Below, piece by piece: positions 42,752 through 62,665 of a stretch of DNA of 64,000 nt. The stretch is from positions 32,001 through 96,000 of IMG/VR virus record IMGVR_UViG_3300045988_136394. One strand, given 5' to 3'. Origin of the DNA: a virus. Both the position numbers and the translations under genes were made by a program. How positions within the stretch are numbered: position 1 is the first letter of the stretch; each line of letters begins with the position of its first letter. The notes below the pieces were generated by a model. It was not told the DNA's origin and did no database searches. It was given only the letters and a program-made list of their open reading frames with translations.

Positions 42752-42782
42752 AAAAACAGGGCAAAAGCCCTGCTTTTTTGCT
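42752..42782. terminator. Bidirectional hairpin terminator AAAAAACAGGGC-aaaa-GCCCTGCTTTTTT
   Basis: 7-bp GC stem flanked by A6 and T6; ends block-2 tail operon. Confidence 0.65.
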
Positions 42783-46103: not shown

Positions 46104-46118
46104 TTTTTCACCCCTTTG

Positions 46119-46864: not shown

Positions 46865-47524
46865 TTATTCTATAGATTGGAGAGGGTACGGGTCAAAGAC
46901 GCCATTATTGAATGGTTGAAGCAGGCTGCCGTTAAAACCAAACGTATTATCGATATCAATCATTATCAGTGACCAGCCTACGCCTGCGCCTACGATTAAA
47001 TTCGCGCCTATCCTAAATATGGCAAGCTGTACATCTGTTAAATACATTGTGAATACGAAGCGAACGTGCATGGGATAGTTATTGTAAAACGTCCCGTCCT
47101 CTCTTTGCTTTTCGTCGATAACGTTGAATACAACGCCGCCCAGCTCCGGAAAAAGCTTGTTTAGCATATAGTTAAGCGTCGCAAGGCTTGCGTCGGTGAT
47201 ATTAGCTAAAGCTTTATAGTAAAGCAGTGAGCGGTATTCATCATCTTTTAACGTGAATTTTTTCCCGTTGATAGGGTCTGTTATAGTTCTGCCCATAACA
47301 AGGATTTCGCCCCATATATCAAGTCCAACGCCGTTAGCCGTCGCTATATTAAATATATTGTCGTAAAAGACAAGCATATCTTTGCTAGGATTAATGTTTG
47401 AGCGAAAATCATCTAAAATCTGATAAATAGTTGTGCTGCTACCGTATTGACTTTGGATATACGGTTGTAGTTCAACACGTATATTGTCGCACTCGCGCAC
47501 ATCTTCTTGCCCTCTAAAGTCCAT
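46865..47524 (-). CDS. Baseplate protein, XkdU/gpI-like
   Basis: Position after J-like gene. Confidence 0.55.
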   Translation of the reverse strand: MDFRGQEDVRECDNIRVELQPYIQSQYGSSTTIYQILDDFRSNINPSKDMLVFYDNIFNIATANGVGLDIWGEILVMGRTITDPINGKKFTLKDDEYRSLLYYKALANITDASLATLNYMLNKLFPELGGVVFNVIDEKQREDGTFYNNYPMHVRFVFTMYLTDVQLAIFRIGANLIVGAGVGWSLIMIDIDNTFGFNGSLLQPFNNGVFDPYPLQSIE

Positions 47525-47536: not shown

Positions 47537-48736
47537 TTAATCTAGTACAGTAATCGTGATATTGCTTTCGCTCATTACTGGTATCTGATTAGCTGGAATA
47601 TCAACGCTATCAGTCCATTCTGACCCGCTAGGGTATGATATCTCAATATTTTCAAGGTTATCTACACCGACGTCAACTATATCGGCGTAGAAGCGGCTTG
47701 CGTAAATCGTCTGTGCCATTTTCGCGCGTCCGTATTTATTTAATTCGCCGTTGAAGTTTTGAAGAACAACTTTTTTAATTTGTTCTTCGTAATTGGTCGG
47801 AAGCGTCGAAGTTTTCCTTATCTTTACAGACAGCGCGAATGTTGTTGTTGTCGGTATCTCAATGTAGTAAACGAATTCATTGCCTTTTTCATCTACATAA
47901 GCGATTTTTGTGTTTCCCGAAATTCCACAGCCGCCGTCAATTTTTTCGTGAATCGTTTTGGCTATACTCTCTATGTTCCCGCCATAGACGCTACAGTAAA
48001 TGCTATGCGGGGGCAGTGTGACGCCGTAAAGCACTTTGTCCGTGTCACCGCGGTTTTCTAAAACCGATACGGCTACTACGTCGGAAAGGTTAGCTAGTGC
48101 GCCCTCAACCGCCGACGCTATGCCGTGGGCGTTCTGTGCTACGCTGGCACGTCTGCGCTGCTCAAATTCTGCCTGCGTTTCGCTGTTTCGTCCGGTGACG
48201 CCTGCGGCTAGATTTGTTATGCTGTCCCAGCCGGGAACAACGGTAACTATCTTCGTAAGCTGCCCTACGCCTATTTCAATAGCCCCACGCTGGCTACAGC
48301 GGAAAATAGCTGTAGCTGTTCCGTCCTCTCCTATGGTCGTTACTGTGACGTTCGTATATGTGTATCCCTTTTGGTCTTGGACTATAGCTCCATAGGGTAT
48401 AACTGTGCCGTATGCGCCTTTGATGTTGCCCGTAACAAGGGTTGCTATGGCTATATGGCGTTCAATGAAGTAAATGCCTGCTAGTGCGTCCTGCCATATT
48501 CCAAGCGCGGTTTTTGGATTGAACATATTCGCAAGATAAAGAATCTCACTATCTTTCCTGTTAATCAATACAGCCTGTCCGTCAATAAGCTGCCCCGCTG
48601 GTGTTTCGGGGGCTGTGTCAAGCAATGGCTTATTGGGGTCTGTCGCGAATGCTTTTTGCCATTGAGTTACAAGGTTAGCCCGTATCGCCGCCGTTCCGCT
48701 TGATACAAGCCCCGTATCCGGGTTAAATGTTATCAT
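47537..48736 (-). CDS. Baseplate J-like protein
   Basis: 399 aa, position. Confidence 0.75.
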   Translation of the reverse strand: MITFNPDTGLVSSGTAAIRANLVTQWQKAFATDPNKPLLDTAPETPAGQLIDGQAVLINRKDSEILYLANMFNPKTALGIWQDALAGIYFIERHIAIATLVTGNIKGAYGTVIPYGAIVQDQKGYTYTNVTVTTIGEDGTATAIFRCSQRGAIEIGVGQLTKIVTVVPGWDSITNLAAGVTGRNSETQAEFEQRRRASVAQNAHGIASAVEGALANLSDVVAVSVLENRGDTDKVLYGVTLPPHSIYCSVYGGNIESIAKTIHEKIDGGCGISGNTKIAYVDEKGNEFVYYIEIPTTTTFALSVKIRKTSTLPTNYEEQIKKVVLQNFNGELNKYGRAKMAQTIYASRFYADIVDVGVDNLENIEISYPSGSEWTDSVDIPANQIPVMSESNITITVLD

Positions 48737-48748: not shown

Positions 48749-49363
48749 TTAATCGTTTAATCTAAATGGATTGATATGAAAAGCGATCATAGATTGCCCC
48801 GCAGTCCCCTTGAATTTCCAGCCTAAATAAATTCGCAGATAAAACCATTTGCAATATTTTTTTGTGTAAAATATGCTCCATGTTTTATTTAAAAATATTC
48901 GATTATCGTTAACGACAGCGATATAGCATTTGTCGTTTTCAGCATAGTTATAGTCAACGTATGTTTTTACCTTATCAGCTAATACATAACGCCCGCAAAC
49001 CTCATAAGAAAAGCCATAAGCAGTATTTCTGTAAAGCCAAACATTGCGGCAAATATAACGCTGAATTTTTTCCCATATAGTAAAATTCGGGTCTAATATC
49101 TCTACGTATCCCGGCTTCATGGCGTATTTATTTTTGAATTCAGGGGTGTATTTATAATGCTTGTCAAAGTCATATCTAAACAGCTTTGGAACGCCGCTGT
49201 TAATTGTATGCGGTATGTCGATACAATTATCGTAAGTCTGCCACCAGCGCAGAGGATATGGAAGTTCTCCGTGTTCGTTTGAGAATAATATTACAACTGG
49301 ATTAGTTACATAGCATATCAATGTAAACATGATATCTAATATTAGATAAAAAATGTAAGTCAT
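48749..49363 (-). CDS. AT-rich inserted gene inside baseplate module: N-terminal TM anchor, W/Y/C-rich 170-aa domain, unknown function
   Basis: Local AT-rich composition contrasting with flanking J and gp25-like genes; TM MTYIFYLILDIMFTLICYV. Confidence 0.5.
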   Translation of the reverse strand: MTYIFYLILDIMFTLICYVTNPVVILFSNEHGELPYPLRWWQTYDNCIDIPHTINSGVPKLFRYDFDKHYKYTPEFKNKYAMKPGYVEILDPNFTIWEKIQRYICRNVWLYRNTAYGFSYEVCGRYVLADKVKTYVDYNYAENDKCYIAVVNDNRIFLNKTWSIFYTKKYCKWFYLRIYLGWKFKGTAGQSMIAFHINPFRLND

Positions 49364-49374: not shown

Positions 49375-50103
49375 TTAAAAATCAATTTGAACGTTTTCGC
49401 TTTCCAATACTGTCGCTTGCACTTCACCGCCCATGACACGCCCGCTTTCATCAAATGTTAAGTCAACTTCTGCTCCTGTTACTCCGTTCACGTTCAGAAC
49501 GGTTTCACGTATGCGAGTTCGCAGGATAGGGGCGGCAATCGCAGGGGCTTTGCCCAGCTCGATTTCAAAATGTGGAATCCCGCGCGTTTGTGCTAAATAA
49601 GCGTCGTTTTTGAACAGCCTGACTGCGTTCGCCGCATTCTGTGCTATAGCATATGCGCCGGATACTAACGCTATCTGTCCGCTTGCGTCACTAAATATAT
49701 CCCACTTGTCATTAAGGTATAGCGTACGCCCTATATCGCCGGGCGTAAAATACGGGTTCATTTCAATTCCATATTTACCTGTGACGTAAATAGGTTCTTG
49801 GATATTGGGCGGCTTTGGCGGTTTCGGTTTATCTTTAGCTTTAACTTCAATCTGATACGTATTATCAATATCTATTGAGCCTGTAAGTGGTTCAAACGTG
49901 TATATCTGCGTTATAGGTTGTAAGTCAACTCCCACAACGCGCATTGTTTCGCCTTTGATATAGCTGCTTTCATCAGATTTAGACGTAACATAACCTTTTA
50001 TAGTCGGATATGCTTCGTCTGCTCTGTTTTGCGCTGCTGACGAAAAATCCGCTTCGTTTGGGCTGGACGTAACAAACGCTTTTAATTCAACAACTTCTGC
50101 CAT
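49375..50103 (-). CDS. Baseplate wedge gp25/W-like domain protein with N-terminal extension
   Basis: C-terminal segment GIPHFEIELGK...ETVLNVNGVTGAEVDLTFDESGRV resembles GPW/gp25 fold signature. Confidence 0.5.
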   Translation of the reverse strand: MAEVVELKAFVTSSPNEADFSSAAQNRADEAYPTIKGYVTSKSDESSYIKGETMRVVGVDLQPITQIYTFEPLTGSIDIDNTYQIEVKAKDKPKPPKPPNIQEPIYVTGKYGIEMNPYFTPGDIGRTLYLNDKWDIFSDASGQIALVSGAYAIAQNAANAVRLFKNDAYLAQTRGIPHFEIELGKAPAIAAPILRTRIRETVLNVNGVTGAEVDLTFDESGRVMGGEVQATVLESENVQIDF

Positions 50104-50114: not shown

Positions 50115-50297
50115 CTAACTTTTTCTAAAATAACTGGTTTCTTGTGTTTTAGAGTTTTTTTGTGACTTCTTATTCATTCTTTCGTATATTTTAGGCAAGC
50201 ATTCTTTACATATATAATAAGTCTTATGATATGCGGGCATTTCAAAAGCCCACTCAATAGGCTTTATCTTACCGCACGAAGTACATTGATGTATCAT
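50115..50297 (-). CDS. Small zinc-ribbon protein
   Basis: CTSCG...CKEC. Confidence 0.4.
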   Translation of the reverse strand: MIHQCTSCGKIKPIEWAFEMPAYHKTYYICKECLPKIYERMNKKSQKNSKTQETSYFRKS

Positions 50298-50298
50298 T

Positions 50299-50520
50299 TT
50301 AGCAATTCCCCTTTTTTAGCGCAGCTTCAACCTCTTTGATATGTAACTGGTTTTCGTTTCGGATTTCTAAAACGGATAATTTAGTAATGCAATCTATACA
50401 TATACCGAATTTGTTATTAAAGTAGTAGTAACCAGTAAGCAAAGGCTTATTGCAGCGGCAGCAAATTCTATCTATATCCATTTTATCACACCTTAACTTT
50501 TGATATTTAAATTGAATCAA
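50299..50520 (-). CDS. Small zinc-ribbon protein (TTG start per track)
   Basis: CCRC...CIDC. Confidence 0.35.
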   Translation of the reverse strand: MIQFKYQKLRCDKMDIDRICCRCNKPLLTGYYYFNNKFGICIDCITKLSVLEIRNENQLHIKEVEAALKKGNC

Positions 50521-50820
50521 GTAATATTAAGTAATCTACATTCGCATGAAAAACAGTATCTTCTAATATTGGCAAAAACCTATCATCTTGCACTGTTATT
50601 TCATATACCGTTTCCGCATACAAATTCACAGGAACGCCAACGGTAGAATTTACTTTTGCATAGTAAGTTAATTCTTCTGTTTTAAAATCTGATATCTTAA
50701 AAGTTACAGGTAGGTCTATAATTCCCGGCTGATAATCAGGGCATTTCAGATAAAAATTTATAGTTACTACAGCGGGTATGTCCCCCCCGAATTTGCAATT
50801 AATACCCTGCGGCTAAACAT
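50508..50820 (-). pseudogene. Frame-broken paralog (copy C) of MF(N/S)RR(L/V)L...SGGDIP family; G7 tract where G8 restores frame
   Basis: ATG overlapping upstream stop (TAATG) encodes MFSRRVLIANSGG then stops; the -1 frame after the G7 run (plus C7 at 50782-50788) continues DIPAVVTINF... for about 90 codons. Confidence 0.5.
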
Positions 50821-51338
50821 TAGCTTGTCAACTCCGTTTCAGTAAAGCTAAAATTTAATAAATTCTGCGGGTATAAATTGCCTACTTGTGCGCCGGGCTT
50901 TATTGCTACAATAAAAAACAAACAGCTATTTACAGAGGTTATTTTATTTGTAGAATTTATAGCAAGAGGACTGTTTGGCGATATCGCAGCGTATATATTA
51001 CTTCCGTCTAAAGCCTGCAAGAGTGCTGTTTTATCTTGAAACAATACTGGTCTAACTTGGCTTTGCTGTGTTCCTATCGCGGATATAATAATCGTTCTGG
51101 ACTGATACCCCGCTGTTAATGTTCCGCTAGATATTTCAAAGCCTGCCTCTGTTCTTAAATATAACGGGAATCCGATTAAAGGGCAAAAATTCGCAACACC
51201 TACTTTTGAGGTTGGGTACGAGATGATATCTGTAAATGTATTTACAGTGCCTAAATTAAAAGGAGTGCTTATGTCGATTTCTTCCCCGTCTGCTGCTCCT
51301 ATGTTGCCGCCAGTATACCAATGTAAATGATTAGCCAT
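50820..51338 (-). CDS. Hypothetical structural-like protein, YxGG-N-terminus family (copy 3)
   Basis: N-terminus HWYTGGNIGAADGEEIDIS similar to 51355..51759 and 52076..52450. Confidence 0.45.
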   Translation of the reverse strand: MANHLHWYTGGNIGAADGEEIDISTPFNLGTVNTFTDIISYPTSKVGVANFCPLIGFPLYLRTEAGFEISSGTLTAGYQSRTIIISAIGTQQSQVRPVLFQDKTALLQALDGSNIYAAISPNSPLAINSTNKITSVNSCLFFIVAIKPGAQVGNLYPQNLLNFSFTETELTS

Positions 51339-51354
51339 TGTTCGAACTCCCTTC

Positions 51355-51759
51355 CTATTCGATTGTTTTTCGCAAATCTATAACATAAGCATAGATTTTT
51401 ATAGACGTATCTACAGTAGCCCCATCACTTGCTGTTGCGTAAAAAGTAAAGGTTAATTCTTGATTGACATCCGAAACTGTTTTTAATACGGTTTCAAAAT
51501 ACCCCCCTGTTAAACCTATCGTTTGCGTAATTGAGTTGTTGAATGAAGTTATACGGCATTTAGTAAATTTATCGGCATTAACTCCAACTAAAACCTGTCT
51601 ATAACTTTCTCCCGCGTCTGCTCTGATATACACCTTAACGCTTTTGCTTGCTGCCGTGCTACCCGACGGGAAAAGCCCTGTAGCTGTGATAGGATTTATT
51701 GATGTAACTTCTGTACCGTCTTTTTGCCCTGTTGTCCCGTCTATATAGAATCTAATCAT
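51355..51759 (-). CDS. Hypothetical protein, YxGG family (copy 2)
   Basis: N-terminus FYIDGTTGQKDGTEVTSI. Confidence 0.45.
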   Translation of the reverse strand: MIRFYIDGTTGQKDGTEVTSINPITATGLFPSGSTAASKSVKVYIRADAGESYRQVLVGVNADKFTKCRITSFNNSITQTIGLTGGYFETVLKTVSDVNQELTFTFYATASDGATVDTSIKIYAYVIDLRKTIE

Positions 51760-52069
51760 TTTCTAGCCCTCTTTCTACCTTTTTTATCGCCCAATCAATA
51801 ATGTTTTTTAAATCAATAAATATATTTGTGTTGCAGTCAGGTGCGCAAGACATTTCTACCTCTATCGCTGTCATACATTCATTTAACAGCTTTTCTACGA
51901 CTTTTTTGTCATAAGTTATACTTAATGCCGTTTTTCTGAATTCTTGGCAGTATATATCTAGCTTGCCTGTTATTTCTTTATCATTGTCAGGAATATCGAT
52001 TTTTATCGCCTTAATATAAGCGTTGCCGCTTAACATCAACAGTTCATCCTCGCACTTTATTATAATCAT
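51752..52069 (-). CDS. Hypothetical Cys-containing protein
   Basis: ORF. Confidence 0.4.
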   Translation of the reverse strand: MIIIKCEDELLMLSGNAYIKAIKIDIPDNDKEITGKLDIYCQEFRKTALSITYDKKVVEKLLNECMTAIEVEMSCAPDCNTNIFIDLKNIIDWAIKKVERGLEND

Positions 52070-52075
52070 TAAAAT

Positions 52076-52450
52076 CTACCCCTCTGTTAATACTGTTTCA
52101 ATATATTTCAGCAAAAATCTGTTTAATACGGTTTGTCCGAACTCTGCCCCTTCCGGAATATTCGACCGCACATAAAACAATGTGTTTGTATCGCCGATAT
52201 TCGCGAATTCTAACTTTTGACCCCACGTGTTCCCGTCTTTAGATAACTGTAACCATTCAGGGTTGCTGCCGATAACAGAAAGCGAAACGTTATAAACATT
52301 AGTCGTTAACGCCGCCCGCAGCGCATAGGCTACAATGTGTCCAAGCTCCCCTTTTTTATCTGTGTACTTCAAGATATCGCTTGTAGTGATTAGTGTTCCG
52401 TCTGTTCCGCCGGATGTAACACTGCCGTTATAAATGCTTAATTGCGCCAT
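52076..52450 (-). CDS. Hypothetical protein, YxGG family (copy 1)
   Basis: N-terminus SIYNGSVTSGGTDGTLITTS; RBS AAAGGGGG. Confidence 0.45.
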   Translation of the reverse strand: MAQLSIYNGSVTSGGTDGTLITTSDILKYTDKKGELGHIVAYALRAALTTNVYNVSLSVIGSNPEWLQLSKDGNTWGQKLEFANIGDTNTLFYVRSNIPEGAEFGQTVLNRFLLKYIETVLTEG

Positions 52451-52497
52451 AAATAAGCCCCCTTTTATTTTTTATTTAACTATGTTATAATTTTAGC

Positions 52498-52577
52498 GTA
52501 GCATAGTCGTAAGCCCTTATATTTTTTCATTCAACGAACCTCTGCAAAATTGGCAATCGGAAACGGTTGCTTTTTTT
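52498..52577 (+). ncRNA. Candidate sRNA unit 1 (extended -10 promoter tgtTATAAT at 52483-52491; terminator GCAATCG-gaaa-CGGTTGC + T7)
   Basis: Promoter and terminator seen in sequence on plus strand; no ORF. Confidence 0.3.
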
Positions 52578-52601
52578 GCGCCCTGTTGATATAATTTAGA
52601 C

Positions 52602-52684
52602 ATTCACAGTCAGCGTTGATTGTTGGTAACTAAAAAGGGTCACAGAAGCGCAAATGCAACGCACATTTGCGTTTTTCTGTTTTA
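52602..52684 (+). ncRNA. Candidate sRNA unit 2 (promoter TTGCTT-17-TATAAT at 52567-52595 with TGn; terminator GCGCAAATG-loop-CATTTGCG + T-run)
   Basis: Canonical spacing; strong 8-bp hairpin. Confidence 0.35.
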
Positions 52685-52744
52685 TATGATAAAATAAATA
52701 CGGTACATATCAGTTTATCTCCCCAACGATAGGCTGATATAGTA

Positions 52745-52766
52745 AAAAGCCCTGCGGGGCTTTTTA
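52745..52766. terminator. Bidirectional terminator AAAAAGCCC-tgcg-GGGCTTTTT
   Basis: Perfect 6-bp GC stem with A5/T5 flanks. Confidence 0.55.
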
Positions 52767-52807
52767 TTTTTGTTTACATTATACCACATGTGCGTTATAA
52801 TAAATAT

Positions 52808-52908
52808 GGTACAAAATTAAACCGCCTTTTTATCATGTGACGCAAAACAAGTTAAAAAGCAGCAGACAAAAGCAAAGTTAACGCTTTGCTTTTTCTGTTT
52901 TTATGCTA
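52808..52908 (+). ncRNA. Candidate sRNA unit 3 (promoter TTTACA-17-TATAAT at 52773-52801; terminator AAGCAAAG-ttaacg-CTTTGCTT + T-run)
   Basis: Promoter and terminator geometry. Confidence 0.35.
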
Positions 52909-52918
52909 TAATATTTAT

Positions 52919-52979
52919 GTGGCGTCAGCTCTCCTGTTGAATTAAAATAAAAGAAGCAATCATAAGAGGTTGCTTTTTT
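52919..52979 (+). ncRNA. Candidate sRNA unit 4 (promoter TTTGCT-16-TATAAT with TGn at 52885-52912; terminator AGCAATC-ataaga-GGTTGCT + T7)
   Basis: Promoter and terminator geometry; terminator T-run doubles as -35 of next promoter. Confidence 0.3.
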
Positions 52980-53004
52980 TGCGCCTTGTTGCTATAATTA
53001 AATA

Positions 53005-53077
53005 TGCAGAAGCTGCCCCTTCTCGCAATCCTTTTTAAACAAAAAAACACCCTGCTTTTTAGCAGGGTGTTTTTTTA
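53005..53077 (+). ncRNA. Candidate sRNA unit 5 (promoter TTGCTT-17-TATAAT with TGn at 52970-52998; strong bidirectional terminator ACACCCTGCT-tttt-AGCAGGGTGT flanked by A7/T7)
   Basis: Near-exact repeat of unit 2 promoter; 3' end convergent with small peptide gene. Confidence 0.35.
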
Positions 53078-53185
53078 CTTCGTCATTTGCCCCAATCCTG
53101 CGCCGATAATTAAAAAGCAAACGCAGAAAAAAACGAAATTCATAATTAAGCCGTTTTCTTTTAGAACGGTAAAAAACTTATCCAT
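53075..53185 (-). CDS. 36-aa hydrophobic peptide (candidate type I toxin-like membrane peptide)
   Basis: RBS GAGAGGGGGG 8 nt upstream of ATG 53185; MDKFFTVLKENGLIMNFVFFCVCFLIIGAGLGQMTK; stop abuts bidirectional terminator; 5'UTR hairpin AACGCTGT/ACAGCGTT next to RBS. Confidence 0.35.
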   Translation of the reverse strand: MDKFFTVLKENGLIMNFVFFCVCFLIIGAGLGQMTK

Positions 53186-53295
53186 GATATACCCCCCTCT
53201 CTTGAACGCTGTTTAGGTTACAGCGTTTTATTTTTGCTTGTATATAGTAATTGTCCTAAAAGTATTTTGAAACGATTACAGGGCAAATATGAGCG

Positions 53296-54240
53296 TCATT
53301 CTTTTCCCGTCGACCCAAAACCGCCCTTGCGGACTTCGTTTGTATCGTCGCTGTCGCATACAGTATATTTAACAAAAATACCTTGCATAATTCGTTCGCC
53401 TTTTTTAAAACTCACGATTTCATTACTGTTATTTTGCAGGCAAATGCCTATATTGCCGTCGTTGTCGGGATTGGAAAAATAATCGGCGTCAATAATTCCT
53501 GTCCCATTCGCTAGTGTTACATGCTGTTTAATGCCTATTGAGCTGCGAATATATAGCATTAACACTTCATCATCAGGCATAAACGCTTTAACGTTTGTTG
53601 GAATAATAGCCGATATGCTGTGGGGATTTAAGCGCACATCACAGGGTAGCACGAAGTCATAACCTGCGCTTTTTGCTGTTTTCCTTTTCGGCAGCACTGT
53701 ATCGGCAGGGGCATTTTTTACGGGGTAAAATTTGCGGGAAACTTTTTCTTCTTCTAAAATTCCGAATTTTACCGGGGCTTCAAACTGATTAGAATTTTCC
53801 ATGTTATCACCTTTAAATATTTCATTTATTTTGTTTTGCAAAAGTTTGCTCGGATTATCTACGATGATTTTTTCACCATTCGTTAATCTAATAATAACTT
53901 TTATCACGTTATTTTTCAAGTTTCGCGTTTCGGTAACGTTAGTTATGCTTCTTATTTGATTAATGTTTTGAATTATTTTTAAAGCTCTGTTCTCTGCTTT
54001 TATCTGCTCTCGGTAGGATTGTTTAAATTGGTTATCAAAAAAAGATTTAAAATTATTACCGCTAGATGTTTGGTCAATAACTTTTCTGATCGATATATAG
54101 TCTTTTGGTATTCGGCATTTCGTGATTATTTCCTCGGCTGCTTTTACAGCTTCTATATCACTGCTATATTTACAACATTTTCCTATCAATAAGCAACACC
54201 GCGGTTTAAGCTTGCTGTTTTGTTTAACTATTTCGCCCAT
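53296..54240 (-). CDS. dut: dUTPase with about 146-aa N-terminal Cys-containing extension
   Basis: C-terminal half has KSAGYDF, NGTGIIDADY, RKGGFGSTGK; internal ATG 53802 with RBS AAGGTGA could give stand-alone dUTPase. Confidence 0.7.
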   Translation of the reverse strand: MGEIVKQNSKLKPRCCLLIGKCCKYSSDIEAVKAAEEIITKCRIPKDYISIRKVIDQTSSGNNFKSFFDNQFKQSYREQIKAENRALKIIQNINQIRSITNVTETRNLKNNVIKVIIRLTNGEKIIVDNPSKLLQNKINEIFKGDNMENSNQFEAPVKFGILEEEKVSRKFYPVKNAPADTVLPKRKTAKSAGYDFVLPCDVRLNPHSISAIIPTNVKAFMPDDEVLMLYIRSSIGIKQHVTLANGTGIIDADYFSNPDNDGNIGICLQNNSNEIVSFKKGERIMQGIFVKYTVCDSDDTNEVRKGGFGSTGKE

Positions 54241-54477
54241 GTAATACCCTTTTTTTCGATTTCAATATAATAAAAACTCACAACTTCAACTGCCACTCAA
54301 AATATGTTTAAATATACTCAAACACATCGAGAAATTGAAGTCCTCACGAATACTTCTTACTGCTTCATTGTGTATGTTTTGACGATTGCAGGCAATACGC
54401 TACTCACAAGTTCTTGTACACTCCACAGTCGTTAATTCCCGAAATAGCCTTCGGTACATACTTACATTTGCTTTTAA

Positions 54478-55641
54478 TCATGCAATCTTGTAAGTTTTAG
54501 CATCTTTTAAATTAAGTGCCGCATTGAAATCCCTGTCTGCAACATAGCCACATTCACATCTGTAAATTCTATCTGAAAGCTTTAAATTTTTCCTGATAGA
54601 ACCACAATGGTGACATGTCTTTGAAGATGGATAAAATCTATCTGCTACCCTTAATTCAATGCCTTTTTCATCACACTTGGCTTTAAGCCTTTTTCTAAAT
54701 TCATAAAACTTCTGAGATGCAACAGCTTTTGAAAGACACCTGTTTTTCATCATTCCTTTTACATTTAAATCTTCAATCGTTATGTAAGACGGTTTGGTTT
54801 TCACTATCTCAGCGATTGTCTTGTTAATGTAATCAGTACGGATATTATCCATTTTATGATGAAGTTTTTGTACCTTAAGCTTTTGTTTCTGTATATTTGC
54901 TCTTTGAGTGGACTCTCCTTTCTTTAAATTTTCATACTTTCGGGAAAGACTTCTCTGTTCCCGGATCAGTTGTTTTTCAAGTTTCTTTAATCCTGCCGAT
55001 TTGTTGATGTTCCTGTATGTCTTTCCATTTGAAATAATAGCAAAGTCTTTTAGCCCAAGGTCTATACCGATTCCCTCGTTTAAGTTATTGTTAATATTGA
55101 CATCGGGAATCTCTACAAGAACAGAAACATAAAATCTGCCAGCCTTAACAGACACTGTACCACTTCTGATCATATATCCATCCTTTGTTGTTGGGATATA
55201 TCCTTTTTCTTTGATACGGACCCAGCCCAGAGTTGGGATCTTAAGTCTGTGCCTTTCGCATTGACAATCCTTTGGGTTATTTCTGACGAAATACATTTTC
55301 ACATCAGATTTACCTTTCTTTTTAAATTTAGGAAAATCACTCTGATGTTTAAAAAATCTTGTAAAAGCAGCACATCCATCTTCGATAGACTTTTTTACGG
55401 CTTTTGAATACACTTCCCTGATCCATGTTTTGTCAGGATTATCTGGAATGTATTCGTTATTAAGCCATAGACTAAAGCTCTTACCAGTCATAAACTTTTC
55501 ACCATTATCATGCAGGGCTTTGTTGTGACCAAGGTAGAAGTTATAAACATATCGGCAAGTGCCTATCGTCTTACGGATTCGGGCTTTCTGTTCTTCAGTT
55601 GGGTTGATTTCCGTCTTGAAGCTCTTTAGCAATCTCTTCAT
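54478..55641 (-). CDS. tnpB: TnpB (OrfB_IS605 family, RuvC-like + zinc finger)
   Basis: GIDLGLKDF (RuvC-I), CHHCG...CECG zinc finger, RDFNAALN (RuvC-III). Confidence 0.85.
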   Translation of the reverse strand: MKRLLKSFKTEINPTEEQKARIRKTIGTCRYVYNFYLGHNKALHDNGEKFMTGKSFSLWLNNEYIPDNPDKTWIREVYSKAVKKSIEDGCAAFTRFFKHQSDFPKFKKKGKSDVKMYFVRNNPKDCQCERHRLKIPTLGWVRIKEKGYIPTTKDGYMIRSGTVSVKAGRFYVSVLVEIPDVNINNNLNEGIGIDLGLKDFAIISNGKTYRNINKSAGLKKLEKQLIREQRSLSRKYENLKKGESTQRANIQKQKLKVQKLHHKMDNIRTDYINKTIAEIVKTKPSYITIEDLNVKGMMKNRCLSKAVASQKFYEFRKRLKAKCDEKGIELRVADRFYPSSKTCHHCGSIRKNLKLSDRIYRCECGYVADRDFNAALNLKDAKTYKIA

Positions 55642-56242
55642 CCTTTTCTATTTGTTTTTTATACTTACGAAGTCCGTACAATCTACAGGAAAAAACATGA
55701 AGTATAGATACAATATCCTGTACAAGTTCTTCTTGCGGTGATAGTTCTTCATTGTTCACTATCACTATAGTTGTATTGAACTTCATACAGAATTTTTCAA
55801 ACCAGTCATATCCAAATCTGATAAATCTGTCTTTATGTGCAACTATGATGGTTTTAATTTTTTGTTCCATTACTTCATCTAACATCTGATTCCACTTTTT
55901 GCGGTTATAGTTTAAACCACTGTCATAATCTTCAATACATTGGTCTACAATCATTCCTCTGGCATTACAGAATTGACGTAAAAACGATACTTGATTCTGT
56001 AAATCATCCTTTTGATTTCTTGTAGAAACTCTTGCATAAATAACAACTTGTCGAGTATCATTCTCTGTATCTATGCCTTTGAATTGAAGATATTGGTTGT
56101 AAGTATAATAACGCCTGTCAGTTGGAGTTCGATTCGCTTTTAGCGTTCCTTCCCTGTCCCAACGCTGTAATGTTTTCACAGAGACACCTAATAATTCAGC
56201 AAAATCTTTTGGTTTATAATTAGTGATATTCGATGTGTTCAT
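55595..56242 (-). CDS. tnpA: IS607-type serine recombinase transposase TnpA (N-terminal MerR-like HTH + resolvase catalytic domain)
   Basis: HTH DFAELLGVSVKTLQRWDREG; catalytic VIYARVSTRNQ; start taken at ATG 56242 (RBS GGGGGG). Confidence 0.8.
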   Translation of the reverse strand: MNTSNITNYKPKDFAELLGVSVKTLQRWDREGTLKANRTPTDRRYYTYNQYLQFKGIDTENDTRQVVIYARVSTRNQKDDLQNQVSFLRQFCNARGMIVDQCIEDYDSGLNYNRKKWNQMLDEVMEQKIKTIIVAHKDRFIRFGYDWFEKFCMKFNTTIVIVNNEELSPQEELVQDIVSILHVFSCRLYGLRKYKKQIEKDEEIAKELQDGNQPN

Positions 56243-56356
56243 AGCAATACCCCCCATGAGCACATTTTAACACATTTAATCACTAATATCAATGTTATCG
56301 ATTGCTTAAAAATTCTCCTTTGATATGTCACATAATTTTGTACGCTTTCAAGTTTT

Positions 56357-56617
56357 TCATCTGTTATACCTTCTATCTCTGATGATTAAATCCATATCTA
56401 GGCTATCCAGCAGCTTTATTAAATCGTTAATGTTGACAAAACCTCTTTTAAAACGGTCGTGCAATCCTGTTTCATTGATATTCATTTCTGCTGCAACTTC
56501 TTTTAAATACCTCTTGTCCCTGCGTACCAGCCTTCTGACCCATGTTTTAAACGCTACCGGGTCAGCTAATTTCTCGGCAGCGTTCCATTCTTTCAGTGTT
56601 GGTTTTTCAAACTTCAC
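56357..56617 (-). CDS. Small HTH-type regulator (GTG start)
   Basis: Immediately downstream of consensus promoter copy B. Confidence 0.45.
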   Translation of the reverse strand: MKFEKPTLKEWNAAEKLADPVAFKTWVRRLVRRDKRYLKEVAAEMNINETGLHDRFKRGFVNINDLIKLLDSLDMDLIIRDRRYNR

Positions 56618-56692
56618 TTTATCACCTGCCTACTTTTTAATTTTTTCATAATACTGCCCCTTTATTTTGATTTTCCCTTACCTCTTGTCTAT

Positions 56693-56721
56693 ATTATAGC
56701 CCCCCTTCGTCCTATTGTCAA
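56693..56721 (-). promoter_or_regulatory. Consensus sigma-70 promoter TTGACA-17-TATAAT (copy B), with about 60 bp of flanking sequence homologous to copy A (~120-bp cassette counting the downstream terminator)
   Basis: Plus tgtcaa 56716-56721 and attata 56693-56698; flank cctcttgtctatattatagcccccc shared with 42.68 kb. Confidence 0.65.
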
Positions 56722-56745
56722 GTCTTTTTTTAATCACAAAATAAA

Positions 56746-56772
56746 AAGCAGGGCGTTTGCCCTGCTTACTGG
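56746..56772. terminator. Hairpin terminator AAAAAGCAGGGC-gttt-GCCCTGCTT (homolog of 42752..42782)
   Basis: 7-bp GC stem. Confidence 0.55.
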
Positions 56773-56774
56773 TA

Positions 56775-57056
56775 TTAATGGGGTAGTTTTTTATAACATT
56801 CTATGCACAGAAGCCCTTTTTCCTGCTGCCTTTTCCCGCATTGAGTGCATAGCCCGGCAGCTTTGAGTTTTTCCCGCCGCTGCTTTGCATATTCAAGCCG
56901 CTGCGCCTTGTGTGCGTGATAATATGCATAGTAATACTTTTCGCACTCTTTACAATGCAGCTTGCCCGCTACAGCTTTACGCTTATAACATCTTGGGCAG
57001 TATCCTTCCGCTTTCAATTCCTCACGGTAGGCTTTCGCCTTTTCTGCTTTATTCAT
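56775..57056 (-). CDS. Tandem CxxC zinc-finger protein
   Basis: CPRC...CKEC and CTQCG...CIEC. Confidence 0.45.
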   Translation of the reverse strand: MNKAEKAKAYREELKAEGYCPRCYKRKAVAGKLHCKECEKYYYAYYHAHKAQRLEYAKQRREKLKAAGLCTQCGKRQQEKGLLCIECYKKLPH

Positions 57057-57083
57057 GTCAATTCACTTCACTTTGTTTTTTTC

Positions 57084-57783
57084 TTAATAATCTAAAACGT
57101 TTGGAGTTACGCCGTTTATGCTTGCAGAGTAGGACATTATAATCTGAATATTCGTAGTAATTGCACCCTCTATTGCATCTCCTGCATATGAACTTACCCA
57201 TTCCTTAGAATCAGAAGAACTATTATACCTGTATACTAGTACATCCCAATATTCAGGTTCGGGTATACTTCCTTCTTCTACAGTAGCCCAACGTATATTA
57301 TAAGTTTTACCGCCTGTTACACCAATATATCTAGGCAGATTAGGGTCAACAAACTCATTTACATAGGTATCTTCTGTTGTGATTTTTAAAACTTTCACAC
57401 CTGGCGGGATAGTGATAGTAAAAGCATTTACAGTGCTACCCTTCCACAATACAGTTTCCTTTGTTGGCAGCGGGGGTTCAAGGGGGGGATAAAACAACAT
57501 ACTCTGTTTCATATTCGACGTCGGTGGGAATAATCCATTTCCCTGTAGCCGCATTATATCCTGCCGCCGTTATCGTATAAGATATTTCTGTTCCTGTCGG
57601 CACTCCATAGAAAACGGCTATTCCTTTATTATCAGTATTAGCTAAATTGCTTTCACCGTTGTAAGTCAGCTCCACTCTTGCTGACCGAACGTGACCGCCG
57701 TCGGGCGTGTCTACATGGATTTCAAGCACAGAATAAGTTTGCTGCTTCCCCCCCGAATCTATTAATAAACGCCTGTTGAACAT
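57084..57783 (-). pseudogene. MFNRRLL-family fiber-like gene (copy B) split into two overlapping ORFs by a C7 tract (plus G7 at 57482-57488)
   Basis: 57478..57783 and 57084..57554 fuse into one 233-aa Ig-like fiber protein if the tract were 6 nt; N-terminal MFNRRLLIDSGGK with in-frame G7 at 57748-57754. Confidence 0.5.
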
Positions 57784-57796
57784 AGTTATCCTCCTA

Positions 57797-58282
57797 TCAC
57801 GCTATACTTGCTGTTATAGGCAACTTTTCAATCTCTCTATTATATCCGCAATACAATACGTTGCAGGGAAACATAAATAAACCAGAACTAACGGCAGCTC
57901 GAAGAATATCATCATTAAAATAAACTAATCCGTTCGCTGTACCTAAATACTTTCCGTTATTTACATTGGTTAGCCGTAATGTCCCGCGTGCGTTACTAGC
58001 AAGGTCAGCCCAATTAAAGTAATCAACTCTATATTGCTGTCCTGCTGCCACGGCAACAACTTGCCGAAATAGTCGGCTATATGTGGGATTCATTGTACTA
58101 CGCGGATACCAGTATAACCCTAATCGCGTCACATTTTCGGGAATGGTAAATGTCGGCATATATTCCACTCGATTTTGAGCGTTATATTGATTTCGTGACG
58201 GAACAAAACAGGCGCTAGGAACATCAACGGGAATAGGAATATCCCCCCCTGATGTGGCTTGAAGTAATCTTCTATTAAACAT
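57797..58282 (-). CDS. MFNRRLL-family fiber-like protein (copy A, intact)
   Basis: MFNRRLLQATSGGDIP; G7 tract (plus C7 58243-58249) in frame. Confidence 0.5.
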   Translation of the reverse strand: MFNRRLLQATSGGDIPIPVDVPSACFVPSRNQYNAQNRVEYMPTFTIPENVTRLGLYWYPRSTMNPTYSRLFRQVVAVAAGQQYRVDYFNWADLASNARGTLRLTNVNNGKYLGTANGLVYFNDDILRAAVSSGLFMFPCNVLYCGYNREIEKLPITASIA

Positions 58283-58712
58283 TTTATCACTTCCTTAAAA
58301 TTCAGAATAAATCATATAGCAAATACCAATGATAGCCCACGTTATCGCACCCATAAATATCGCTTCCACGTCAACGCCTGTCTTTCTTTTGTCGCAGCGT
58401 TTTTCTCGCCATAACTGCCCATTCGTGTGATGACCAAACCAAACATGTCGGGCAAATATTTACATCAAGCCGCCCGTAAGTAAAGCTTTTGCAAGCGTCC
58501 GCTGAATATTCTTCATTGCATAGATTGCACTTAATTTTCCCGTTTCCCATTTCAAAACCTCTCTTAGTTTGTATGCTAAATTTGCTGGTATAAATGCGGT
58601 AAAATACGGTATTTTATCGCTAAATTATTTATGTAGTTTAAATGTCAAAAACAGCGTTTTTTGCTATCTCTTTTTTTGAGATATCAAATTTACCCATTTT
58701 TGATGTTTTGCT

Positions 58713-59426
58713 TTATTTAGGTGTGCCAGTATTACTATTGCCGCTTTCAACATTTCCGTGAACGTGGTCGGCAAAGCTAATACCTTTGATTGTCGCATTG
58801 TCGATAACATCAAGCCGCTGCTGCACGGTTGTGTTACCTGTAACGGTCAGATTGCCATTTATGGTAGTGTTACTGTTAATGGTCGTCTGACTGGTGTTAA
58901 TTGTGACGTGCTGCGGGGCTGTGACGATAACATTGCCGTCCGGTAGAATCTGAATGTAGCAGGTCGGCTGCTGGTTTAAAAATCCGCCGATAAAAAAGCC
59001 GTCTGAAATATCAAAGTTCCTAAAGCTACCGGGCTGGACTGGTTCAGGTGTTCCGTTAATAACGTTGGATACGTCCCGCTGACAGAATACCGCAAGTCCA
59101 ATATCACCCGGTACAGGGTCGCAAACTAATGCCGCTGCGCCGCCCTGTATTCTGCAATAGGGTAAATTATAAAGCGGGGCTGGATTTATGGCGTTGTTTT
59201 TGGCGTCTAGGGCAACTATTAAGGGCAGTACATCAACTCGCCCTGTGGGGCTTATTCCGTCGCTGTAAACAGCTTGGACTTTGCACGGCAACGCCGTATT
59301 TACCCTGCCATTCAAAAAGTTTTCGATAAAATACGCCATTTCGTTACCCGGACTATTTCCCGTAAAAGGTGAACGAGTGCTTTCAACCGTCGGCGAAATT
59401 ATTTGAGATTTTTTCAAAGTATCCAT
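58713..59426 (-). CDS. Baseplate spike-like protein (gpV/Mu gp45-like) with C-terminal Thr/Asn-rich beta-helix-like repeats
   Basis: Position after D-like gene; C-terminus TINTSQTTINSNTTINGNLTVTGNTTV...HVHG. Confidence 0.5.
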   Translation of the reverse strand: MDTLKKSQIISPTVESTRSPFTGNSPGNEMAYFIENFLNGRVNTALPCKVQAVYSDGISPTGRVDVLPLIVALDAKNNAINPAPLYNLPYCRIQGGAAALVCDPVPGDIGLAVFCQRDVSNVINGTPEPVQPGSFRNFDISDGFFIGGFLNQQPTCYIQILPDGNVIVTAPQHVTINTSQTTINSNTTINGNLTVTGNTTVQQRLDVIDNATIKGISFADHVHGNVESGNSNTGTPK

Positions 59427-59427: not shown

Positions 59428-60294
59428 TCAGCTCTCCTGTACGTAAACGGCTTTGACTACGCTGTCCCACGCTCCCGCAGCTTGCGAATTAAAACATTCT
59501 AGGTTATGCGTCAAGCTCGTTACTTTCCATACGCCTGTAGCTCGCGGAACAACGCTTTCCAGCTTTACTAACCCGCCCAGTGTGATAGTAGGGTCAAATT
59601 CGCATTTAAACTCTATGCCGTCCTGCGTGAAAGACGGGTAGCCGATTAAACCAGTTCCTACCTTTATCAACACAGCATTACCGCTGCGCGCTCCGTTTTT
59701 CGGAGTTATCACGACTTTACTGTCGTCAATATATAAATCAATGCCTAGTTGCTTTGCTAGCTTGTGCATTTTTTCGATTGGACTGCCTGTAAAGGTTGTG
59801 TTTCTGACGCTTGCTGAAACGCCCTCGTTGATAAAGGTGTATCCCGCTTCTGTCGCGAATTGCTCGAACAGTTTCGCAGCGTCGGTAGTGCCTTGTACAG
59901 CGATTGGCGGCGTTGCCAACAGCGCAGGATAAATACCCGCCGCTGCTTTGATATCAAAAGATATCTCCGGCGCACCGCTAAAGTTAGCGGCTGCCAGTGT
60001 AAACTCACCTTCAAAGACTGTCCCAACTATACCCGTATCGTCGCCAACTTCAAGGCGAATAAAGTTCTTTTCTGACTGCTGTGGATAAAATGCTAACGTG
60101 CTTGCCGTTTCCATGACACTTAAAGGTAAACCGTATATACTGGCGGTTAAAGTGTTCTTGTCCTCGCCGCCCGGCTTCGATATCGTCGCTTTAATGCGGT
60201 GGTTTTCAATAATAATAGTATTGCTATTCGTATTCGGAAAAGTCCCGCTACGAAGCGTTATAGTCGCTCTAAGGGCTTTTATAGAAAAACTCAT
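59428..60294 (-). CDS. Tail protein, P2 gpD / XkdQ-like
   Basis: Position between TMP-distal gene and spike; start at ATG 60294 directly after upstream TAG. Confidence 0.5.
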   Translation of the reverse strand: MSFSIKALRATITLRSGTFPNTNSNTIIIENHRIKATISKPGGEDKNTLTASIYGLPLSVMETASTLAFYPQQSEKNFIRLEVGDDTGIVGTVFEGEFTLAAANFSGAPEISFDIKAAAGIYPALLATPPIAVQGTTDAAKLFEQFATEAGYTFINEGVSASVRNTTFTGSPIEKMHKLAKQLGIDLYIDDSKVVITPKNGARSGNAVLIKVGTGLIGYPSFTQDGIEFKCEFDPTITLGGLVKLESVVPRATGVWKVTSLTHNLECFNSQAAGAWDSVVKAVYVQES

Positions 60295-60295
60295 G

Positions 60296-60604
60296 CTACA
60301 TCTCGCTTTCCGGCACGAAGCACAAGACAAAACGTGTTCCTAGCTCTTTATAGTCCGGCTGCGCTCCGTGTCCTTCTTTGTCCACAAATAGCAGATTTCC
60401 GCTGAAATTCAATTTAGGCTGCTGTAAGATCAACTCATTAGTTACACACAGCGCGCCTGTACATATCACTTCATCCTGTACGCTTAAATCACAATATAGT
60501 TTGTCATAACGCCAGTATAAGCGAATTTGGCAGATTTGACCGTCAAGCGTTACCGTGAATTGCTGATTAGGTATAGCGTTTAATGGTATCGTTTTATAAG
60601 TCAT
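60296..60604 (-). CDS. Hypothetical tail protein
   Basis: ORF coupled to neighbours. Confidence 0.4.
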   Translation of the reverse strand: MTYKTIPLNAIPNQQFTVTLDGQICQIRLYWRYDKLYCDLSVQDEVICTGALCVTNELILQQPKLNFSGNLLFVDKEGHGAQPDYKELGTRFVLCFVPESEM

Positions 60605-61198: not shown

Positions 61199-62665
61199 TT
61201 ATTTAATGCCGCTTGCATTCGTAAAGAATAGCCCTGATTTCTCACTGATTGCTCCACCCATGTCGGCAGCTATGCCGCTTGCGTCCGTTGCTGCGGTATG
61301 GATATCAATTTTTCCTACATTGATTTCTTGATTGGTATTGCTACCTCCGCCGCCTGCTGCAATAGCCTGCAACGACGGTATCGGAGTATTAGCTTGTTCC
61401 CACCGTTCGGAAATGGTAGCTTTTATACTGCTCAATGAAGGAATTTTGTCTAAAATCTTCCCTATCCATTCCCACGCTGATTCGAGCGGGGATATTAAGT
61501 AGTCGTTAATAAACCCTGCAATGGCTTTGAACGCTGCGCCGCCTGCTGTAACAAGTAACGCCATTGCTGTTACGATTTTATAAAATCCCATTAAGGCGAA
61601 TAATAAGATTTGTTTCAGTATCTCCCATGCTATTTGAGCTGCCTGTTTCAGGTACTCCCACGCCGTTTGCAGTGTCGCAAGGACTTCATCTCCTGTCCCC
61701 AACATTTCCCATAAATCTTCAAAGGCACTCTTGCCGCCATTGGCATACACCCATAAATCTTCTAGGACTAATAGAAACGCCGCTATAAGCATTATAACCC
61801 ACGTTATAGGATTGGCTAGTATGGCGGTGAATAAACTCCATAGGGTAGGCAGTAATAAGCCCGTAACAACGGCTACAATAGCGTATAACGCCATCGTTAA
61901 TATATCGCCGTGCTTCTGCATATAGGCGAATGCATCCGTTAATGCTAGGGCGAATTGGGTCAGTGTCGGAGCAGCAAACCGCAGAATCGGCAAAAATACG
62001 AATCTAAAAGAACGGCTTAATTCAGTAATGCTGTCGTTAAACTTTGCAGCTATAACCGTATCCTCTTTTGTGAAATATCCTAAATCCTTTTGACGTTTTA
62101 TCAGGTCGTCTAAAGCTTGCCTACCACCTTGCAAAAGTCCTATCGTACCTTCGTCGAGTTGTAGTGAAGATAATATACTTTGACTTTCCAGCTTGCTCAT
62201 ACCTTCAACAGCTCCGGCTAAATCTCGCAAAACGTCAAATACATTGCGGACTTTTCCGCTGTCGTCTACTACTGCAACGCCCAGTTGCTCAAAGAATGGC
62301 AGGATACGGCTTTTACCTGTAACAGCGATACGGGTCAACTGTTTATTAAGTCCTTCGACGCTGTTAAACAATCCCCTGACGCTGCCGCCTGATAGTTCTG
62401 CCGCGTTGCCCCATGCGTATAAATCCGGAGCATTTGCACCAATTCTGTCGGCAATCTTACCAACTTCGTCAGCCCCTGCTGCCAAACTTTTAACTTGAGC
62501 TATAATTGCACCGAATGAAAAGAAAGCGGCAGCGGCGGCTGTTCCTTTTTTCGTTAGCTTGGAAGCAAAGCTTTCTGTTTTTTTGTCGGCTTCATCTATT
62601 CCTTTGTTAAAGTCTGTGGGGTCTAGCCCTAGAGTTATCATAAAACTATCAATAACTGTAGCCAT
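61199..62665 (-). CDS. Tail tape measure protein
   Basis: 488 aa, multiple TM segments, position after chaperone. Confidence 0.7.
   Translation of the reverse strand: MATVIDSFMITLGLDPTDFNKGIDEADKKTESFASKLTKKGTAAAAAFFSFGAIIAQVKSLAAGADEVGKIADRIGANAPDLYAWGNAAELSGGSVRGLFNSVEGLNKQLTRIAVTGKSRILPFFEQLGVAVVDDSGKVRNVFDVLRDLAGAVEGMSKLESQSILSSLQLDEGTIGLLQGGRQALDDLIKRQKDLGYFTKEDTVIAAKFNDSITELSRSFRFVFLPILRFAAPTLTQFALALTDAFAYMQKHGDILTMALYAIVAVVTGLLLPTLWSLFTAILANPITWVIMLIAAFLLVLEDLWVYANGGKSAFEDLWEMLGTGDEVLATLQTAWEYLKQAAQIAWEILKQILLFALMGFYKIVTAMALLVTAGGAAFKAIAGFINDYLISPLESAWEWIGKILDKIPSLSSIKATISERWEQANTPIPSLQAIAAGGGGSNTNQEINVGKIDIHTAATDASGIAADMGGAISEKSGLFFTNASGIK

Follow-up and report, generated by a model that had tools for sequence, protein, structure and literature searches.

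A 64,000-nucleotide stretch of a viral genome from IMG/VR (record IMGVR_UViG_3300045988_136394, positions 32,001 to 96,000; hereafter the window, to which all coordinates refer) carries three small genes, here called copies A, B and C, that begin with the same short leader peptide and that encode the glycines of this leader within a run of seven guanines. Among related phages the length of this run varies, so that the gene behind it is either in frame (ON) or out of frame (OFF), while the open reading frames (ORFs) downstream stay intact. Heritable ON/OFF switching of the leader genes through slipped-strand mispairing is strongly supported by these sequence comparisons. The best explanation of the whole, to which we assign a probability of about 0.7, is that these are phase-variable leader genes within the baseplate/tail module of an E217/Pam3-like gut myophage.

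The ORFs and sequence of the window place the three genes and a total of four G/C tracts on the minus strand, as follows:

57797-58282, minus strand: copy A, a leader gene of 161 amino acids (aa), intact (MFNRRLLQATSGGDIPIPV...) and ON as assembled
58244-58282, minus strand: leader of copy A, codons 1-13 (MFNRRLLQATSGG)
58243-58249, minus strand: G7 of copy A, covering codons 12-13 and base 1 of codon 14, in frame; the ON length is G7
57478-57783, minus strand: first ORF of copy B, ATG at 57783, 101 aa (MFNRRLLIDSGGKQQ...), with the leader and a predicted transthyretin-like (CarboxypepD_reg/CnaB-like) domain
57748-57754, minus strand: leader G7 of copy B, in frame, with AAG next
57482-57488, minus strand: interdomain tract of copy B, C7 on the coding strand, which breaks the gene after its first domain
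57084-57481, minus strand: C-terminal domain of copy B (D-type), out of frame in the window
50507-50820, minus strand: copy C, whose ATG at 50820 overlaps the upstream stop (TAATG); OFF, 17 aa
50782-50788, minus strand: G7 of copy C, in the register TC[G GGG GGG]

As assembled, A is ON, B yields its first domain only and C is OFF. The leader G7 falls at codons 11-14 in all three genes. Past the C7 tract the remainder of copy B is open in another frame (57084-57554), and removal of a single C gives a protein of 232 aa. Copy C translates as MFSRRVLIANSGGTYPL, that is MFSRRVLIANSGG-TYPL, and with G8 in place of G7 it would encode 104 aa that read SGGDIPAVV... and end at 50507. These four tracts are the only runs of seven or more G or C in the 64 kb, where a model of independent and identically distributed (iid) bases predicts 0.57 C7 and 0.09 G7 runs. 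GGG is moreover the rarest glycine codon of the window (11%), and GGGGGG encodes just 2 of the 84 Gly-Gly pairs in its long ORFs. The observation of four tracts is thus confirmed and goes beyond chance. Homopolymers of at least eight of any base are absent from the window, although about ten such T runs are expected under the iid model, and the relatives are likewise poor in them (about one per 23 kb). Since the relatives show the same scarcity of long runs, we rejected a truncation of homopolymers as the origin of the window tracts. The scarcity looks like genuine avoidance in a densely coding genome, and the retained G7 tracts therefore stand out all the more.

To place these tracts among related phages, 25 IMG/VR loci were gathered through the copy A protein, an exact DNA pattern of leader plus G6 retrieved 52 IMG/VR stretches and 115 metagenome stretches, and additional contigs were included through exact-protein look-ups. 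Pooling yielded 243 distinct leader genes, among which 130 were in frame, 73 needed one more G and 40 needed one G less, that is, 53% were ON and 47% OFF. In every OFF case a change of a single G brought back an ORF no shorter than 90 aa and usually of 100-235 aa. Tract lengths ranged from G5 to G9 across relatives, with intact ORFs downstream. The ON fraction differed by gene family: 39/64 for family A (G6 sixteen times, G8 eight times, and G5 also occurring), 30/46 for family B, 23/39 for family D and 2/25 for family C, in which the ON form is G8, G7 was found 17 times and G6 six times, and the body is intact. Among 20 relatives aligned at the copy A tract, half had the same length as the window and half a different one, and in two faecal-virome records of 94-98% identity (MT840027 and MT836504) copy A carried G8 and was OFF in both. 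Tracts were also common when no tract was required for retrieval, as 57 of the 64 leader instances found in this way had a G run of at least five.

Three further lines of evidence concern the dynamics of the tract. Firstly, three of the 16 copy A body alleles (444 nucleotides, nt) differed in tract length between contigs whose bodies were 100% identical (L005 with G7 and L017 with G6; L006 with G7 and L018 with G6; L014 with G5 and L015 with G6). Secondly, on a neighbour-joining tree of 24 taxa built from 1.5 kb of upstream sequence plus the copy A body, the G5, G6, G7 and G8 alleles were interspersed and at least nine length changes were needed. Thirdly, the ratio of nonsynonymous to synonymous polymorphism (pN/pS) of copy A was 0.29 when both alleles of a pair were ON and 0.31 when one of them was OFF, which argues that OFF alleles are not decaying; pairs of two OFF alleles gave 0.69, at very low divergence. 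In copy B of the relatives, G8 followed by AGCAGC was ON, G7 followed by AGCAGC was OFF and G7 followed by AAGCAG was ON. Its leader also occurs with interrupted tracts (GGGGAGGG) that are in frame and can be described as locked alleles, which are typical of contingency loci.

The behaviour of other homopolymers served as a control. When the window was compared with its relatives by blastn, none of 203 comparisons at A/T runs of six or more in coding DNA revealed a difference in length, and 17 of 162 did so at intergenic A/T runs of this size. A coding G6 outside the leader genes (at 51502) was unchanged in 4/4 comparisons. In contigs with 20-234x coverage 16 leader genes were ON and 14 OFF, and each of these genomes displayed its own combination: L207 had A ON with B and D OFF, L222 had A and B OFF with D ON, and L261 had all three ON. 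Sequencing error can thus be excluded as a general cause, given the invariant A/T controls and the OFF states at high coverage; the A/T controls, the non-leader G6 and the high-coverage contigs together led us to reject generic homopolymer error. An earlier note on this DNA, made from the window alone, had described three genes with four tracts and two copies broken at homopolymers, all of which we found where it had placed them. It had also predicted that one C fewer would restore copy B and that G8 would restore copy C. Both forms do exist in nature, the first in L020 and the second in 2 relatives, except that the restored copy B measures 232 aa and not 233. Its central proposal of contingency-style ON/OFF tracts rather than random error, for which it advised a comparison of tract lengths in related phages, is borne out by the G5-G9 range over the 243 leader genes with intact downstream ORFs, by the identical bodies with differing lengths and by the 0/203 control.

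Some contigs stop at or near a leader or tract, namely L069 (inside the tract), L022, L055 and L031, and L037 and L038, two assemblies of run ERR2227709, both end 7 nt past the tract of the second gene. Such ends could reflect mixed tract lengths within the sample or a short leader repeat that confuses the assembler, and are not decisive. Among three pairs of contigs from the same assembly that carry a leader gene, only one has any sequence in common, an overlap of 46 nt at the contig ends, away from the tracts.

The leader consists of 12-14 codons, with the pattern M-F-N/S-R-R-L/V-L, 3-5 variable residues and G-G. Similarity between the window genes is confined to their first 13-19 codons, and A and C additionally share DIP. 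The arginine and leucine codons of the leader vary synonymously (AGA/AGG/CGT/CGC/CGA and TTA/CTT/CTA/TTG) while the peptide MFNRRLL is kept, which points to selection on the peptide and not on the DNA alone. The leader precedes at least five bodies that are unrelated to one another (A, C, transthyretin-like, F and G), with hhalign probabilities of 6.6% at most. Two small superfamilies were also detected by hhalign, one of the C-terminal domain of B1 with a 146-aa type and the other of D with the E and TETVPT types. Up to four leader genes occur in tandem, and L059 encodes a multi-domain leader protein of 470 aa with transthyretin-like domains. For these reasons the description of the window genes as paralogous, given in the earlier note, is inaccurate: one portable leader-switch module precedes different bodies. 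Residues 1-14 of copy A were disordered in an AlphaFold2 (AF2) model. The motif RRLL was considered as a twin-arginine translocation (Tat) or lipoprotein signal and rejected by inspection, as there is no hydrophobic h-region and charged residues follow soon after the leader. A leader-like start without G tract (MINRRLLIYGAPK...) was found upstream of copy A in one sub-lineage (L012 at 5280 and L002 at 2521, minus strand), and may represent an ancestral or unswitched leader.

Short conserved N-termini in front of variable bodies are known from other phages. In KP32-type Klebsiella phages, interchangeable second receptor-binding proteins (RBPs) carry short conserved N-terminal attachment peptides, and the internal proteins of T4 bear a capsid-targeting sequence of about 10 aa. 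Neither shares sequence similarity with the present leader, but the likeness in arrangement suggests, by analogy, a common docking or targeting partner.

The second tract of copy B varies among relatives as well. The window copy B is a fusion allele of the transthyretin-like and D-type domains, which are two separate genes in many relatives. Its C-terminal body is a standalone leader gene of 145 aa in L001, L005 and others, and the B1 and D-type domains are found either fused behind the transthyretin-like domain via the C tract or standalone with a leader of their own. L020 (232 aa) and L004 carry the fusion in frame. The junction could also be aligned in L015 and L027, where the ORFs are shortened for other reasons. 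Of 17 IMG/VR loci, 16 had an in-frame interdomain tract of C6 or C5TTT, and the window alone had C7. A search of Logan/ENA data with the first-domain protein returned many forms of 100-118 aa: those ending in ...VVLSPPR* correspond to C7 on a non-fused allele (e.g., P0058, a cluster of 34 member sequences), those ending in SPSLTMIL* correspond to C5, and out-of-frame readings of the fused allele are also among them. At the DNA level, L168 confirmed C7 with an intact downstream domain. Because C7 and C5 forms recur and the DNA of L168 has C7, the interdomain tract is a recurrent break point too, and the many truncated C7/C5 forms led us to reject the C7 of the window as a one-off. A shift at this tract removes only the C-terminal domain of copy B.

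What the bodies are was approached through sequence and structure searches. A word-indexed search placed copy A in a family of 54 proteins, all from gut metagenomes and without Pfam domain. A search of 1.84 billion representative proteins with its profile recovered nothing beyond 21 fragments of this family, and copy A was absent from 185k species-representative genomes. The AF2 model of copy A is a beta-sandwich with a predicted local distance difference test score (pLDDT) of 68.7 and no significant fold match in the PDB. The first domain of copy B had a weak Pfam match (PF13620, E=5e-4) and was modelled at pLDDT 87.7, and Foldseek aligned the model at template modelling (TM) scores of 0.63-0.72 to CnaB2, TIE, SlaB and the transthyretin-like domain of carboxypeptidase D. 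According to these models, the domain is of the transthyretin/CnaB/CarboxypepD_reg-like type, as in pilins, S-layer proteins and adhesin stalks, a fold that is generic. Pfam, PHROGs and PADLOC searches with A, B, C, D and four other bodies gave no usable match, and neither did a PDB sequence profile search of the bodies.

The genomic setting of the leader genes is summarized by the following features, all of them on the minus strand and listed from the tape measure towards the fibres:

61199-62665, minus strand: tape measure
59428-60330, minus strand: hub
58713-59426, minus strand: baseplate spike, gpV-like, with Apex motif (Pfam xxxxx_N and Apex), immediately upstream of the leader genes
58371-58550, minus strand: small Zn-finger protein
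57084-58282, minus strand: copies A and B
56775-57056, minus strand: Zn-ribbon protein
56746-56767, minus strand: terminator that closes the tail operon downstream of copies A and B and the Zn-ribbon gene
56693-56721, minus strand: perfect sigma-70-type promoter (TTGACA-17-TATAAT)
56357-56617, minus strand: helix-turn-helix (HTH) protein
about 54290-56328, minus strand: insertion sequence (IS) element
53296-54240, minus strand: dUTPase
50820-52450, minus strand: three small paralogues
50115-50520, minus strand: two Zn-finger proteins (50299-50520 and 50115-50297)
49375-50103, minus strand: gp25-like sheath initiator/baseplate wedge (phrog_120)
48749-49363, minus strand: DUF7338 protein
47537-48736, minus strand: Baseplate_J protein
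46865-47524, minus strand: Wedge1 protein
43428-46844, minus strand: fibres of 241 and 891 aa

The spike gene and the sheath-initiator gene enclose the leader genes both in the window and in L029, where a Sheath_initiator Pfam match occupies the equivalent position. The leader genes come directly after the spike in the relatives examined (the L029 series, L059 and L168), and no promoter or terminator was found in the interval from the spike to A and B. The precomputed Pfam matches of the relatives point to an E217/Pam3-like myophage.

Position, apparent co-transcription with the tail operon and the predicted fold of the first domain of copy B together favour a role in the baseplate. Our preferred reading is that the proteins are accessory or adhesin-like modules that would attach to the baseplate through their common leader. 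The earlier note had called them fiber-like receptor-binding proteins, a label that found no support: the bodies had no Pfam, PHROG or PDB match and resembled no known domain of fibres, tailspikes or RBPs in sequence or fold, and conventional fibre genes, including one of 891 aa, sit elsewhere in the phage. Its assignment of an Ig-like, CarboxypepD_reg-type domain to copy B was right at the level of fold (TM 0.63-0.72), and the host-range cassette of which it spoke is an inference.

From these observations we infer a mechanism with the following steps. The accessory genes in question are small, specific to this lineage and sited in the baseplate/tail module, and each begins with the portable leader, whose Gly-Gly codons are embedded in a homopolymer of G6-G8. 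During DNA replication, slipped-strand mispairing would add or remove one G, and the resulting frame shift directly after the leader would turn the gene ON or OFF in a heritable and reversible manner, independently of the other leader genes. The second tract of copy B (C5-C7) would add or drop only the C-terminal domain. The products would dock through the common leader at the virion baseplate or tail tip as accessory or adhesin-like proteins, so that the phage population may carry many combinations of surface modules, and the switching would then be an adaptive form of bet-hedging. A more ambitious version of this mechanism holds that a docking leader and its poly-G switch form one module in front of at least 5-7 unrelated baseplate-region domains in a widespread group of myophages of human-gut Lachnospiraceae, each domain displayed or withheld independently of the others to give 2^n virion types from a single genome, with a distal domain gained or lost through the interdomain tract; we put it forward tentatively, as possible rather than probable.

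The alternative that survives best, although we think it unlikely, accepts the switching and holds that the proteins are non-structural or injected, for example anti-defence or superinfection factors, with the leader as a targeting signal by analogy with the capsid-targeting sequence of T4 internal proteins. It is favoured by a short conserved N-terminus shared by small proteins that are otherwise unrelated, by the lack of homology to fibres or RBPs in the Pfam and PHROG searches of the bodies, and by moron-type genes in the neighbourhood (the dUTPase in the window; HicAB and Bro-N in L029). However, in the relatives examined the genes come right after the spike, they are apparently co-transcribed with tail genes, and both copy B and the 470-aa protein of L059 have predicted transthyretin-like domains of the stalk/adhesin type. 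There were also no PADLOC matches, in a library that consists of defence and not anti-defence proteins.

Neutral change would do without any function of the switch: the genes would be dispensable, the tracts fragile and the switching of no adaptive value. This agrees with the 47% of instances that are OFF, the narrow and lineage-specific family, an island that collects cargo and an IS element, and the higher pN/pS of OFF-OFF pairs (0.69, at very low divergence). We nevertheless regard it as improbable, since the tract is kept against the GGG codon bias (in 57/64 of the instances retrieved without bias, and in diverged paralogues), OFF alleles retain full-length ORFs with pN/pS of about 0.3, the ON share is 53%, where free drift among the three frames would give 33%, and at least five unrelated bodies have acquired the module of leader and tract.

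We give slightly less credence to recoding, in which the tracts are sites of programmed ribosomal frameshifting or transcriptional slippage, OFF alleles still make the full protein and the variation in DNA is tolerated noise. Copy C could undergo a -1 shift on G GGG GGG, and copy B a +1 shift on CCC_C, a motif known to be prone to +1 slips. The tract of copy C is indeed in the exact X XXY YYZ register and one G short in 17/25 genomes (G7) with the body intact, and the commonest OFF class needs an additional G, which equals a -1 ribosomal slip (73 versus 40). On the other hand, neither tract length nor frame relation is conserved, the majority is in frame in A, B and D, and OFF forms of both signs occur. 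The G6 of copy C in 6 genomes would be beyond rescue by the same slip. The sequences downstream of the tracts are unrelated between genes, and no stable RNA structure was detected in the 70 nt after each tract (z-scores of -1.47 for copy C and of 0.17, -0.54 and 0.56 for the others). Frameshifting or transcriptional slippage may still act as a layer in addition to phase variation, most of all in copy C. Finally, it is scarcely credible that the lengths are artefacts of sequencing or assembly and the genes in truth all intact or all broken, because, even if some contigs have very low coverage (1.5-4x), a few end at or near a tract (L069, L037 and L038) and the C7 of copy B is unique to the window among 17 IMG/VR loci, A/T coding runs of six or more differed in 0/203 comparisons versus 10/20 at the copy A tract, OFF states were as common at 20-234x (14/30), identical OFF lengths recurred across independent studies and assemblers, and the C7 is present in independent Logan data.

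Several points weigh against phase-variable leader genes in the baseplate module. All tract lengths are those of assembled contigs compared between genomes, and the window states (A ON, C7 in B and G7 in C) are single assembled calls. Recombination among co-circulating phages may inflate the count of at least nine length changes on the tree but could not remove it. Copy C was OFF in 23/25 genomes, a pattern that fits a mostly silent gene or transcriptional or translational slippage as well as it fits bet-hedging. Likewise, the island holds non-structural cargo, that is, the dUTPase, the HTH protein and the IS element in the window, and HicAB and Bro-N in relatives.

Phase variation through simple repeats has been described mainly in Campylobacter phages so far. 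In the Fletchervirus group, hypermutable polyG tracts are reported to make the expression of RBPs phase-variable, as documented by experiment (Sorensen et al. 2021, Cell Rep 35:109214, as cited in PMC10877375, PMC11959909 and PMC10579305), and a 2025 review refers to this as an "exceptional case" (PMC11959909). As far as these accounts of it go, the likeness to the present phages lies in G homopolymers that change length in tail or host-recognition genes, with phase-variable expression and mixed populations in Fletchervirus. The differences, on the same accounts, are that the host is Campylobacter there and probably a Gram-positive gut commensal lineage here, that the Fletchervirus proteins are demonstrated RBPs whereas ours are small (100-230 aa) and without PHROG match, and that the tract here is within a conserved, portable leader in front of at least five unrelated bodies, with an extra interdomain tract.

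Contingency loci of bacteria, such as surface genes of Campylobacter, Haemophilus and Neisseria, share with the leader genes the 5' homopolymer, the frame toggle by one base, the interrupted locked alleles and several independent loci with combinatorial states, but here the element is a virus known from assembled sequence. In T2, T4 and other lytic phages, reversible frameshifts at runs of six or more have been interpreted as bet-hedging; these loci are mostly A/T runs spread over every class of gene, with a deficit in infection proteins (Gomez, Barrick and Waters, bioRxiv 10.1101/2025.10.21.683753). By contrast, A/T coding runs are stable in our phages, and the variable ones are rare G/C runs in one set of genes that share a leader. 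The invertible G and C segments of Mu and P1 (Gin/Cin) and the diversity-generating retroelements of BPP-1 likewise allow one genome to encode alternative tail-associated proteins, although through site-specific inversion or reverse-transcriptase mutagenesis, and as alternatives rather than independent ON/OFF states. Our literature search found no description of the present leader-switch system, which is distinct in its host lineage, the restriction of variability to G/C runs, the portable leader and the interdomain tract.

The phages described here belong to a common uncultured group of the human gut, represented by more than 100 metagenome contigs. If the more ambitious version of our reading is true, phages that infect Gram-positive gut commensals would here show simple sequence repeat (SSR) phase variation for the first time, and no earlier system would have had as its switch a modular and transferable leader in place of an incidental run within a gene. 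If the proteins are modules of the virion surface, one genotype would continuously yield mixed particle types, with a bearing on coexistence with hosts that vary their own surface and on the inference of host range from metagenomes. Gene calling is affected as well, with about half of the leader genes annotated as fragments. The leader-tract module would also be a compact natural ON/OFF cassette that is potentially reusable.

The absence of copy A from the species-representative genomes meant that no host could be read from a prophage, and the IS element of the window offered a clue instead. It belongs to the IS607 family and encodes, on the minus strand, a serine recombinase (55595-56263), TnpB (54478-55641) and a RAGATH-18 RNA (54357-54429), which scored 69.8 bits against a gathering score of 44.9 and lies directly 3' of tnpB, the position in which a TnpB guide RNA is to be expected. 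No related phage contig that covers the site has the element; in these contigs 54291 is joined directly to 56315. Over 2040 nt it is 98.97% identical to a copy in Coprococcus comes MSK.16.63 (next best 88%). This near identity suggests a Coprococcus-type host, probably Coprococcus comes or a close relative among the Lachnospiraceae.

Regulatory G runs vary too. A G6 in the promoter spacer (56700-56705, minus strand) was G7 in 1/5 relatives, which would lengthen the spacer to 18 nt, and a G6 at 53192-53197, which falls within the Shine-Dalgarno region of an ORF for a small membrane protein, was G5 in 7/12 relatives. These may tune expression at the level of the promoter or ribosome-binding site, as in bacterial phase variation. 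In a distant lineage (L029 at 9467, also L032 and L033), a G7 is found within the spike gene itself (...RMQGG...), a run that the window spike lacks.

Three small genes in tandem between copy C and the dUTPase (52076-52450, 51355-51759 and 50820-51338, minus strand; 124, 134 and 172 aa) have no G tract. They share the N-terminal motif Y-x-G-x3-G-x2-DG-x-(I/L/V) (MAQLSIYNGSVTSGGTDGTLI, MIRFYIDGTTGQKDGTEV and MANHLHWYTGGNIGAADGEEI), had no family match beyond a weak one to phrog_23562 and are also present in L059 (723-2056), where they adjoin the DUF7338 gene. Four cysteine-rich proteins of zinc-ribbon-like type (CxxC...CxxC), without family match, are interspersed with the leader genes, and a function as chaperone or regulator is possible. 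The non-coding region 52450-53290 gave only Rfam matches below gathering scores. It contains repeated units on the plus strand of a hairpin, a T run and ...TATAAT, together with several terminator-like hairpins, and may hold antisense promoters or small RNAs. A 51-nt repeat occurs there in two copies of 82% identity (e.g., 52546-52596 and 52949-52999), and the sequence at 56651-56767 recurs as a 124-nt block of 82% similarity at 42652-42775.

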